A DNA stretch of 27,192 bases, taken from the IMG/VR virus record IMGVR_UViG_2874920711_000004, positions 1-27,192 of that record; one strand, given 5' to 3'. The position numbers are program-made. The stretch's first letter is position 1, and each line of letters begins with the position of its first letter. The DNA comes from a virus (lineage: Duplodnaviria; Heunggongvirae; Uroviricota; Caudoviricetes). Shown piece after piece: positions 19,301 through 22,300 of the stretch.

Positions 19301-22300
19301 AACATTGAGTTGCTATCAGACAGCGGGCGCGAGTCACTGATAGACAGGATTAAAGGCGCTGACTCAATCACCCTTCATGCGTGGCTTGACCGATATGAAA
19401 CAATCCTCAGCGAGAGGGGCATCAGACCGAAAACTCTACTCGACTACGCCAGCAAAATCAGGGCAATTCGAAGAAAATTGCCGGACAAACCGCTCACTGA
19501 CATATCAACGAAAGAGGTGGCAGCAATGCTAAATACCTACGTAGCAGAAGGTAAAGCGGCTTCCGCAAAATTAATCAGGTCAACCCTTGTTGACGTTTTT
19601 CGTGAAGCAATAGCCGAGGGGCATGTGGCTACGAATCCGGTAACAGCAACCCGCACAGCAAAGTCAGAAGTAAGGCGCTCAAGGCTGACAGCTAATGAGT
19701 ATGTCGAGATTTACCATGCAGCCGAACCTCTCCCTATCTGGCTGAGGCTGGCAATGGATTTGGCCGTCATTACAGGGCAGAGAGTGGGCGATTTATGCAG
19801 AATGAAGTGGTCAGACATAAACGACAACCATCTTCACATTGAGCAGGGTAAAACAGGGGCTAAGCTCGCCATTCCGCTGACGCTAACGATTGACGCGCTC
19901 AATATCTCACTGGTTGATACACTACAGAAATGCAGGGAGGCCAGCAGCAGTGAAACTATAATCGCATCAAAGCATCACGATCCGCTTTCCCCGAAAACAG
20001 TATCAAAGTATTTTACAAAGGCGAGAAATGCCTCCGGACTCTCATTTGATGGAGACCCGCCAACATTCCATGAACTGCGTAGCCTGTCAGCGAGGCTATA
20101 CCGGAACCAGATTGGCGATAAATTTGCTCAACGTCTTCTCGGGCATAAATCAGATTCAATGGCGGCGCGGTATAGGGACAGCCGAGGGAGAGAATGGGAC
20201 AAAATTGAAATCAACAAATAATTTTATTTTGACTAATAATGACCTGTACATTGTAGTTTATTGATAATTAAAGAGATTTTAAATGTGCAACTTTCCTTAT
20301 TGAAGGATGACAAAATAATATAAATCACTTAAAAATCATCGCATTACACGAATCTGCGGTTAAATAACAGACTACAAAATGCGACAAAACACAACATATG
20401 CAGTCACTATAAATCAACTACTTAGCTGGTATTAGTGACCTGATACAGAGCATTAGCGCAAGGTGATTTTTTGTCCTCTTGCGCTAATTTTTTGTCAACG
20501 CACTGGGTTAGCTGAATTTACAACCATGCTCAGTATCTCGATAAGCGCAGAGAAATGATGCTGTGGTGGGCAGACTACTGGCTTGATGAAAAGGTAGGGC
20601 GACCAACCGCGTTTTTTCAGTTCAGTCAGCACATTGAGCCAGAACTTCACCCCTTCATTTTCGGCCAGCCACATCCCCAACAGTTCTTCCTGTTCTTAAC
20701 TATTTACAGGCGCGTTTTTTTAAAGAATCCTCACTCCATTTGCACGAACATATTAATATATAAACAATGAGGATCAATAATAAATGAAACCTGCCCACAA
20801 TCCTTCTTTTTTCCGCTCCTTTTGTGGTTTAGGATGTATATCCCGTTTATCCGTAGAAGAGCAAAATATCACGGATTATCACCGCATCTGGGATAACTGG
20901 GCCAAGGAAGGTGCTGCAACAGAAGACCGAACACAGGCAGTTCGATTACTGAAAATATGTCTGGCTTTTCAAGAGCCAGCCCTCAATTTAAGTTTACTCA
21001 GATTACGCTCTCTCCCATACCTGCCCCCGCACATACAAGAACTTAACATCTCTAGCAATGAGCTACGCTCTCTGCCAGAACTCCCTCCGTCCTTAACTGT
21101 ACTTAAAGCCAGCGATAACAGACTGAGCAGGCTCCCGGCTCTTCCGCCTCACCTGGTCGCTCTTGATGTTTCACTTAACAGAGTTTTAACATGTTTGCCT
21201 TCTCTTCCATCTTCCTTGCAGTCACTCTCAGCCCTTCTCAATAGCCTGGAGACGCTACCTGATCTTCCCCGGCTCTACAAAAACTTTCTGTTGGCAACAA
21301 CCAGCTTACTGCCTTACCAGAATTACCATGTGAACTACAGGAACTAAGTGCTTTTGATAACAGATTACAAGAGCTACCGCCCTTCCTCAAAATCTGAGGC
21401 TTTTAAACGTTGGGGAAAACCAACTACACAGACTGCCCGAACTTCCACAACGTCTGCAATCACTATATATCCCTAACAATCAGCTGAACACATTGCCAGA
21501 CAGTATCATGAATCTGCACATTTATGCAGATGTTAATATTTATAACAATCCATTGTCGACTCGCACTCTGCAAGCCCTGCAAAGATTAACCTCTTCGCCG
21601 GACTACCACGGCCCACGGATTTACTTCTCCATGAGTGACGGACAACAGAATACACTCCATCGCCCCTGGCTGATGCCGTGACAGCATGGTTCCCGGAAAA
21701 CAAACAATCTGATGTATCACAGATATGGCATGCTTTTGAACATGAAGAGCACGCCAACACCTTTTCCGCGTTCCTTGACCGCCTTTCCGATACCGTCTCT
21801 GCACGCAATACCTCCGGATTCCGTGAACAGGTCGCTGCATGGCTGGAAAAACTCAGTGCCTCTGCGGAGCTTCGACAGCAGTCTTTCGCTGTTGCTGCTG
21901 ATGCCACTGAGAGCTGTGAGGACCGTGTCGCGCTCACATGGAACAATCTCCGGAAAACCCTCCTGGTCCATCAGGCATCAGAAGGCCTTTTCGATAATGA
22001 TACCGGCGCTCTGCTCTCCCTGGGCAGGGAAATGTTCCGCCTCGAAATTCTGGAGGACATTGCCCGGGATAAAGTCAGAACTCTCCATTTTGTGGATGAG
22101 ATAGAAGTCTACCTGGCCTTCCAGACCATGCTCGCAGAGAAACTTCAGCTCTCCACTGCCGTGAAGGAAATGCGTTTCTATGGCGTGTCGGGAGTGACAG
22201 CAAATGACCTCCGCACTGCCGAAGCCATGGTCAGAAGCCGTGAAGAGAATGAATTTACGGACTGGTTCTCCCTCTGGGGACCATGGCATGCTGTACTGAA

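Follow-up and report, generated by a model that had tools for sequence, protein, structure and literature searches.

An intact HK022/lambda-type attachment site in a Shigella chromosome, the probable product of an integrase-catalysed inversion about the terminus

The window studied here is a stretch of 27,192 nucleotides (nt), positions 1 to 27,192 of the IMG/VR virus record IMGVR_UViG_2874920711_000004, and it belongs to the chromosome CP026824.1, where it lies in a composite prophage, riddled with insertion sequence (IS) elements, between ymdF and wrbA. Our subject is the phage attachment site (attP) that stands in this chromosome beside its own integrase gene, together with the bacterial site (attB) that matches it and the rearrangement that it probably records. 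An intact excisionase gene, xis (18952-19170, plus strand, 72 amino acids (aa)), overlaps the start of int (19148-20221, plus strand), which encodes an intact HK022-type tyrosine integrase of 357 aa and ends in a TAA stop codon at 20219-20221. The attP comes next, followed by a sib/tI terminator and, as cargo beside the P arm, by ipaH (20784-22547, plus strand), which encodes a leucine-rich repeat and NEL E3 ligase effector of 587 aa that is intact in sister genomes. A first-pass annotation made from the sequence alone had described an intact P-O-P' site next to int with a sib-like terminator beyond it, and every part of that arrangement was found where it had been placed.

We mapped the attachment sites by aligning the window, HK022, phage Gally and lambda in the P-to-P' orientation with the lambda sites marked, and the alignment confirms that 20215-20441 carries a complete P'-O-P attP of the type used by the heterobivalent HK022 and lambda integrases, functional in appearance. 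The region annotated as attP and sib in HK022 (X51962) shares 89.0% identity with the window over 358 nt (E = 2e-126), lambda shares 77.6% with the attP region over 314 nt (E = 9e-60), and Gally matches the 411 bases around attP over their full length at 87.1%. Taken on the minus strand but listed in window order, the site opens with the P' arm-type Int sites (20215-20245), which are identical to those of HK022 save for one base in P'3: P'3 (20215-20225, reading AGGTCATTAT) overlaps the int stop codon, and P'2 (20226-20235, TAGTCAAAAT) and P'1 (20236-20245, AAAATTATTTG) are both unchanged. A predicted integration host factor (IHF) site, H' (20254-20266, TATCAATAAACTA), aligns with the H' of lambda (TATCAATTTGTTG) and of HK022. 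The 21-bp core (20288-20308), read as ATCCTTC, AATAAGG and AAAGTTG and in register with the HK022 and lambda cores, consists of C' (20288-20294) and C (20302-20308), both placed by alignment to lambda and HK022, around the 7-bp overlap AATAAGG (20295-20301).

Beyond the core lie a predicted H2 IHF site identical to that of HK022 (20334-20346, TAATGCGATGATT), a predicted X2 Xis site with 2 of its 17 positions changed relative to lambda (20362-20378) and a predicted X1 Xis site identical to that of lambda (20386-20398, TATGTTGTGTTTT); the Fis region falls within the X2-X1 interval (20362-20398). P2 (20401-20410, CAGTCACTAT), the predicted H1 IHF site (20412-20424) and P1 (20431-20441, ATTAGTGACCT) are the same in lambda and HK022. 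All five arm-type Int sites thus align with both phages, those of the P' arm being of the HK022 type, H' and X2 remain recognisable with few changes, and the IHF and Xis sites are predicted at conserved positions. The earlier description of the arms as lambda-type therefore holds for P1, H1, P2 and X1 but not for the stretch between the core and X2, which is of the HK022 type and includes an H2 region identical to HK022 and diverged from lambda. The 15-bp core proposed at the time (20292-20306) almost exactly overlaps the crossover region at 20288-20308.

The sib/tI element (20452-20493, plus strand) consists of a G+C-rich hairpin (20452-20487) followed by six T residues (20488-20493), lies downstream of int across attP, and corresponds in alignment to the feature annotated as the sib transcription processing site in HK022 X51962. 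Its sequence is nearly invariant among lambda, HK022, Gally and the window, with one substitution and one additional loop base relative to the lambda hairpin. A simple terminator scanner did not flag it; the support comes instead from this conservation and from the fold of the extended hairpin (-29.1 kcal/mol, z = -3.4 against shuffles). Between sib and ipaH lies a 61-aa transposase relic (20495-20680, minus strand) with a motif that we take to be IS256-like. The corresponding stretch in loci of enteroinvasive Escherichia coli (EIEC) is annotated as a partial transposase and the similarity to Gally also extends past sib, so the relic looks like an old part of the b region.

If the locus were an ordinary attL junction, host DNA should continue past the core, and the first-pass annotation had named this as the case to be checked by alignment. 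The 190 nt past the core align instead with the P arms and sib of HK022, lambda, 434 and Gally, the match to HK022, lambda and Gally running as far as sib. An assembly artefact across a repeat would find some encouragement in the homopolymer indel errors of the assembly. The same P'-O-P join nevertheless recurs in 12 assemblies that were produced independently and by different technologies, some of them with short contigs running from int through attP into ipaH, and the shared core of 11-16 bp is too short to mislead an assembler, so that either of these explanations retains a negligible probability.

At the protein level the integrase has 96% identity to HK022 Int and 75% to lambda Int, and its residues 1-55 are the same in all three; its Pfam record lists the Arm-DNA-bind_1 and Phage_integrase domains, and 152 blocks of the assembly collection contain exactly this protein. 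Xis is identical in translation to HK022 Xis and is called as PF07825 (Exc) in sister loci. In alignment the window Int carries D99, P282, K283, K287, R319 and R329, as does HK022 Int. Dorgai et al. reportedly defined the HK022 core-specificity set in 1995 as D99, P282, K283, K287 and R319. The substitutions N99D and H329R are core specificity determinants (PMC10863862). Read from P to P', the cores are ATCCTTC/AATAAGG/AAAGTTG in the window, ATCCTTT/AGGTGAA/TAAGTTG in HK022 and CAGCTTT/TTTATAC/TAAGTTG in lambda; the window C and C' are each one base off those of HK022, and the two overlaps have at most 3 of 7 positions in common. Given the 96% identity, core-site recognition is likely to be HK022-like. 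Because Int is essentially HK022 Int, the new specificity sits in the 7-bp overlap rather than in a new core-binding domain, and because the overlap of HK022 att sites may be arbitrary as long as both partners are identical (PMC7736782), a changed overlap is enough to shift the integration site. The lambda-identical N-terminus reported by the first-pass annotation is borne out, as is the divergence from lambda in the rest of the protein. A natural HK022-type integrase has apparently been retargeted through its overlap alone, the 4% of Int that has changed missing the known specificity positions; retargeting by this means has so far been exploited mainly in engineering.

The expectation that the site would integrate elsewhere than lambda was correct. 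Judged from the junctions described below, the matching attB is formed by the sibA/ibsA and sibB/ibsB repeats, which lie in the K-12 gap between yegL and mdtA. In a collection of 5426 complete E. coli genomes, which excludes Shigella, 94 hold one half of the site and none holds the whole 111 bases around the core. The half made of core and P arm (attR) adjoins ibsA/ibsB-yegL in strain M18, and the half made of P' arm and core (attL) is found 344 bp upstream of mdtA in strains SLK172 and TUM3755 and, at the same distance, in three genomes that encode exactly the window Int. All four sites, attP, attB, attL and attR, share CTTTCCTTATT, the 11 bp at window positions 20291-20301, which occurs in both sibA and sibB (positions 1114-1124 and 1443-1453 of the K-12 locus stretch); in sibC, sibD and sibE even the 7-bp overlap was not found. 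From P to P', attB reads GGCCATA or GGCCTTA, then AATAAGG, then AAAGGGT, and the HK022 attB, GCACTTT/AGGTGAA/AAAGGTT at K-12 torS/torT, has a B' similar to that of the sib sites. The attB core spans the ibs Shine-Dalgarno region and lies within the Sib RNA gene, upstream of the Sib terminator. The E. coli junctions that have been sequenced use the sibB/ibsB copy and the Shigella junctions the sibA/ibsA copy. These type I toxin-antitoxin repeats are thereby identified as a phage attachment site.

Integration at this place leaves each ibs open reading frame (ORF) without its promoter and each Sib RNA without its terminator, and the duplicated repeat offers two alternative attB sites, both of which are used in nature. 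Two candidates were rejected along the way: the 16-mer CTTTCCTTATTGAAGG as the common core, of which attB shares only 11 bp, and a set of EIEC matches that start at window position 20302 as attR of the same phage, which carry a different core and are joined to yfaT.

A YqaJ variant that occurs in a single record assigns the window to CP026824.1. The attP of CP026824.1 does not stand at this attB. The gene order to the left of the window is rutE-rutF-rutG-ymdF, a small invertase, an IS630 element and a gene of 221 aa; beyond its right end come IS66 copies, a truncated serine recombinase gene and wrbA-yccJ-agp. These flanks, rutG-ymdF through wrbA-yccJ-agp, are colinear with K-12, on whose scale attP lies about 1.1 Mb from its own attB, and no attL or attR was found within 38 kb of the attP locus. 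The 221-aa gene on the left and the serine recombinase on the right belong to the element that occupies wrbA in E. coli 26561.

Comparison of Shigella-type assemblies that carry either the exact Int or neighbouring window proteins revealed two chromosome forms. In 12 independent assemblies or read sets the P'-O-P join is followed by ipaH, as in the window (the attP form); in three genomes, among them CP026836.1, cited as S. boydii (PMC12817139), int-P'-O is followed by ibsB-mdtA (the attL/attR form). CP026836.1 also contains the counterpart, attR, in the order yegL-ibsA-O-P-sib-ipaH-DUF4376 gene-interrupted tail-fibre gene-IS66-serine recombinase-wrbA-yccJ-agp. By blastn its attL region matches window 17509-20306 at 99.8% and its attR region matches window 20291-25488 plus the wrbA flank at 99.5-99.8%. 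Homology breaks at the core, ending at 20306 in the attL-bearing genomes and starting at 20291 in the attR-bearing one. The two junctions, attL at about 0.380 Mb and attR at about 1.714 Mb, are 1.33 Mb apart and point in opposite directions. Relative to K-12, mdtABCD and wrbA-agp on the outside share one direction, whereas on the inside the early region leading to ymdF-rut and yegL leading to alkA have the reverse one. The two forms therefore probably differ by a single Int-catalysed core crossover that inverts the segment between wrbA and ibsA. Because the exchange falls within a core of 11-16 bp and the sites are more than 1 Mb apart, it has the mark of site-specific and not homologous recombination. 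Both forms share the tail-fibre/IS66 junction and the IS copies between ead and a DUF4222 gene, and so diverged after the prophage had decayed. On the K-12 map, dif lies at 1.5908 Mb and the att sites 523 kb and 563 kb from it, so that the inversion is nearly symmetric about the terminus. Terminus-symmetric inversions are of the kind that chromosomes tolerate.

These structures bear on the proposal of the first-pass annotation that the attP was left by a tandem double lysogen (attR-phage-attP-phage-attL) after the loss of its outer parts. Tandem lysogens of lambda-type phages have an attP in their middle, and the local order int-attP-cargo-tail fibre would be expected at such a junction, yet the junction here lies between ymdF and wrbA instead of between ibsA and mdtA. 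Moreover, in genomes with the same IS junctions the two halves are found apart, each joined to a side of the ibsA attB as the inverted attL and attR of CP026836.1; a tandem would require extra translocations and does not predict such an inverted pair. We therefore consider this origin very unlikely. The other suggestion in that annotation, a phage genome fixed in the chromosome by another route, was right in spirit, the route being Int recombination between distant inverted att sites combined with IS-mediated or homologous rearrangement.

We think it probable that the window attP, an HK022/lambda-type site with sib/tI that has apparently been retargeted by its overlap, represents one of the two states of an Int-catalysed inversion about the terminus. 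In the history that we favour, a phage would first have integrated normally at ibsA/sibA. An inversion mediated by IS66, between the copy in the tail-fibre gene and that in the serine recombinase gene, or else by prophage homology, would then have connected the tail-fibre end of the prophage with the wrbA element, so that attL and attR came to be inverted relative to each other, as in the S. boydii form. Finally, Int and Xis could have recombined attL with attR, inverting the segment back, restoring colinearity with K-12 and yielding attP at wrbA together with a presumably intact, empty attB, which is the form seen in the window.

The same final structures would result if the attP form were ancestral, that is, if a circular ipaH phage, excised or infecting, had been captured in the wrbA element as a permuted prophage with its attP intact. 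Capture could have proceeded through RecA and a homologous prophage region, through the IS66 shared by the tail-fibre and serine recombinase genes, or through an IS66 cointegrate, and Int alone would later have recombined the chromosomal attP with the inverted ibsA attB in S. boydii-type lineages, inverting the terminus. In keeping with such a course, the composite is bounded by IS elements within the wrbA element, the 221-aa gene and the serine recombinase at its two ends both derive from the element of E. coli 26561, the attP form occurs in 12 assemblies as compared with three of the attL/attR form, and integrative recombination requires only Int and IHF. The phage would, however, have had to bypass two available attB sites in favour of an inefficient route; the attL/attR genomes, a natural intermediate when integration comes first, would need an additional step; and neither a second IS66 copy nor the 5' part of the tail-fibre gene was seen at the left border of the composite. 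Both orders of events fit all of the structures. Because integration first places every observed form on one path and has the phage use its normal entry route, we infer that order, and regard capture as possible but clearly the less probable course.

Several points weigh against the inversion history as we have told it. The attP was not found among the INPHARED phages (megablast of 20245-20355), and two exact-pattern scans of IMG/VR did not return it; with no carrier in either collection, the activity of the module as a phage is deduced from the E. coli prophage junctions only. The intact attB at ibsA/ibsB of CP026824.1 is a prediction, and for the 1.33-Mb segment of S. boydii the case for a simple inversion comes only from the loci at its two ends. 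In CP026836.1, int is called as a 231-aa fragment, and homopolymer indels in these assemblies make the integrity of individual genes uncertain. A further proposition, that attP, int and xis together with the sibA attB still form a reversible natural switch that flips 1.1-1.3 Mb centred on dif, with both orientations (attP with attB, and attL with attR) persisting in nature, seems to us improbable. Given continued production of Int and Xis, the chromosome could conceivably change orientation, although the likelihood of this is low; such a switch would rewire the SibA/IbsA toxin-antitoxin locus and toggle the control of int by sib.

The comparison of the two forms provides nucleotide-level evidence that a phage integrase, and not IS elements only, has made a terminus-centred megabase inversion in Shigella. 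We found no earlier description of this attP or its core, of ipaH linked to an attP, or of the inversion in the literature and phage collections that were searched. Because the remnant at wrbA lacks an attL and attR for its own Int, excision through the int-xis module should not occur, and ipaH would be fixed in the chromosome. With sib in cis beyond int, transcripts of int that read through should, by analogy with lambda, meet RNase III-dependent retroregulation and be unstable, so int may be controlled much as it is in a vegetative phage. For annotators, an intact attP in a chromosome need not denote a tandem lysogen or a free phage.

The distal part of the window shows other signs of traffic. 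In EIEC, other cores adjoin the module made up of the distal P arm, sib, ipaH and the tail-fibre gene: VL7S7 and O121 have a third core, different again, and the module there borders on a truncated yfaT (DUF1175) gene, and in VL40 it lies at the lambda attB beside ybhB-bioA. The conserved arms appear to permit reshuffling of cores and cargo among lambdoid phages. Three assemblies with the attP form (AAMJ02, UYIS01 and AFFZ01) continue past the tail-fibre relic into IS4-torT'-torR-torC, with torT truncated, in place of IS66, the recombinase and wrbA, an arrangement that fits a further IS-mediated inversion of a 10-kb tor-wrbA block.

In the window itself ipaH is split into two ORFs (20784-21347 and 21678-22544) by single-C deletions at 21266, 21379 and 21662. 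Relative to the otherwise 99.9% identical locus of CP027027.1, seven such deletions occur within 4 kb, the remaining four being at 22595, 23497, 23786 and 24246; they look like long-read homopolymer errors rather than real pseudogenisation, and the frameshifts, including those of ipaH, may be errors. A DUF4376 gene and the 3' part of a tail-fibre gene follow (22723-24239, minus strand; limits from EIEC annotation and matches), the latter cut at 24239/24240 by an IS66-family element resembling ISSfl3. Just past the right end, in a stretch that starts at window position 26948 (17800-19580 of the flanking locus), a 327-bp unit is repeated in two tandem copies, each with a 48-aa helix-turn-helix-like ORF, and these adjoin the large serine recombinase. 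That enzyme is 547 aa long in E. coli 26561; in the Shigella loci its 3' end is cut by IS66, and in CP026824.1 it is called as 384 aa only. The recombinase was found in no INPHARED phage record. We had considered it as part of Stx2a-like phages with early regions resembling window 4422-18066, and as no phage record carries it, an origin of the early region from the wrbA element was dropped as a claim.

The early region upstream of xis is lambdoid and interrupted by several IS copies, one IS-mediated inversion having split recT. The N-terminal part of recT (11209-11643, plus strand) is cut by an IS, and its C-terminal part (2553-3032), together with yqaJ (1861-2556, minus strand), is found 8 kb away in inverted orientation, flanked by two IS3-family copies. 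A DEAD-box helicase gene (4728-5878) and a cI-like repressor gene (7279-7629) are broken in the window and intact in AAMJ02000007.1, and a hicA-hicB toxin-antitoxin pair occupies the immunity region (8249-8844, minus strand). Rfam matches to isrK (9502-9578) and to the C4 antisense RNA (9603-9690) lie at or overlap the 5' end of a rha/ash-type gene (9586-10383), an arrangement that resembles a P1/P7-like RNA-controlled antirepressor module within a lambdoid early region. An Rfam match to sRNA-Xcc1 (78 bits, 18087-18170) falls on the 5' end of an ORF6N/P22_AR_C antirepressor-like gene (18085-18867).

Among known systems the closest relative is HK022, with which the window shares arms that are 89% identical (P1, H1, P2, H2, P'1 and P'2 being unchanged), an Int with 96% identity and the same residues at the specificity positions, an identical Xis, and sib/tI. 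It departs from HK022 in its overlap (AATAAGG as opposed to AGGTGAA) and in its target, sibA/sibB upstream of mdtA and not the attB between torS and torT; with its junctions at ibs-mdtA, the window element does not belong with HK022 by integration site, and its attP is resident in a bacterial chromosome, whereas that of HK022 is in a phage genome. With lambda, whose attB lies between gal and bio, it has in common the architecture and order of the sites, Int residues 1-55, P1, H1, P2, X1, a nearly identical sib hairpin and the int-P'-O-P-sib orientation; it differs in an Int that is 75% identical and carries the HK022 residues, in the C site and overlap, and in the H2 and H' regions. The E. coli prophages between ibsB and mdtA (M18, SLK172 and TUM3755) have the same overlap and arms and an Int 96-100% identical, and they display the normal attL and attR products of a window-type attP; they are ordinary single lysogens at the ibsB copy, whereas the Shigella junctions use ibsA, and M18 has different cargo, the attR flank that was examined being without ipaH.

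Inversions between lambda att sites have been engineered in E. coli. Large chromosomal inversions mediated by an integrase occur in the Thermococcales (PMC5495485). The proposed Shigella event resembles both in that a tyrosine integrase recombines distant, inverted att-type sites and flips the interval between them. It is deduced from comparative genomics only, and it differs from both precedents in involving a natural lambdoid pair of sites, attP with attB or attL with attR, about 1.1-1.3 Mb apart on an interval centred on dif.

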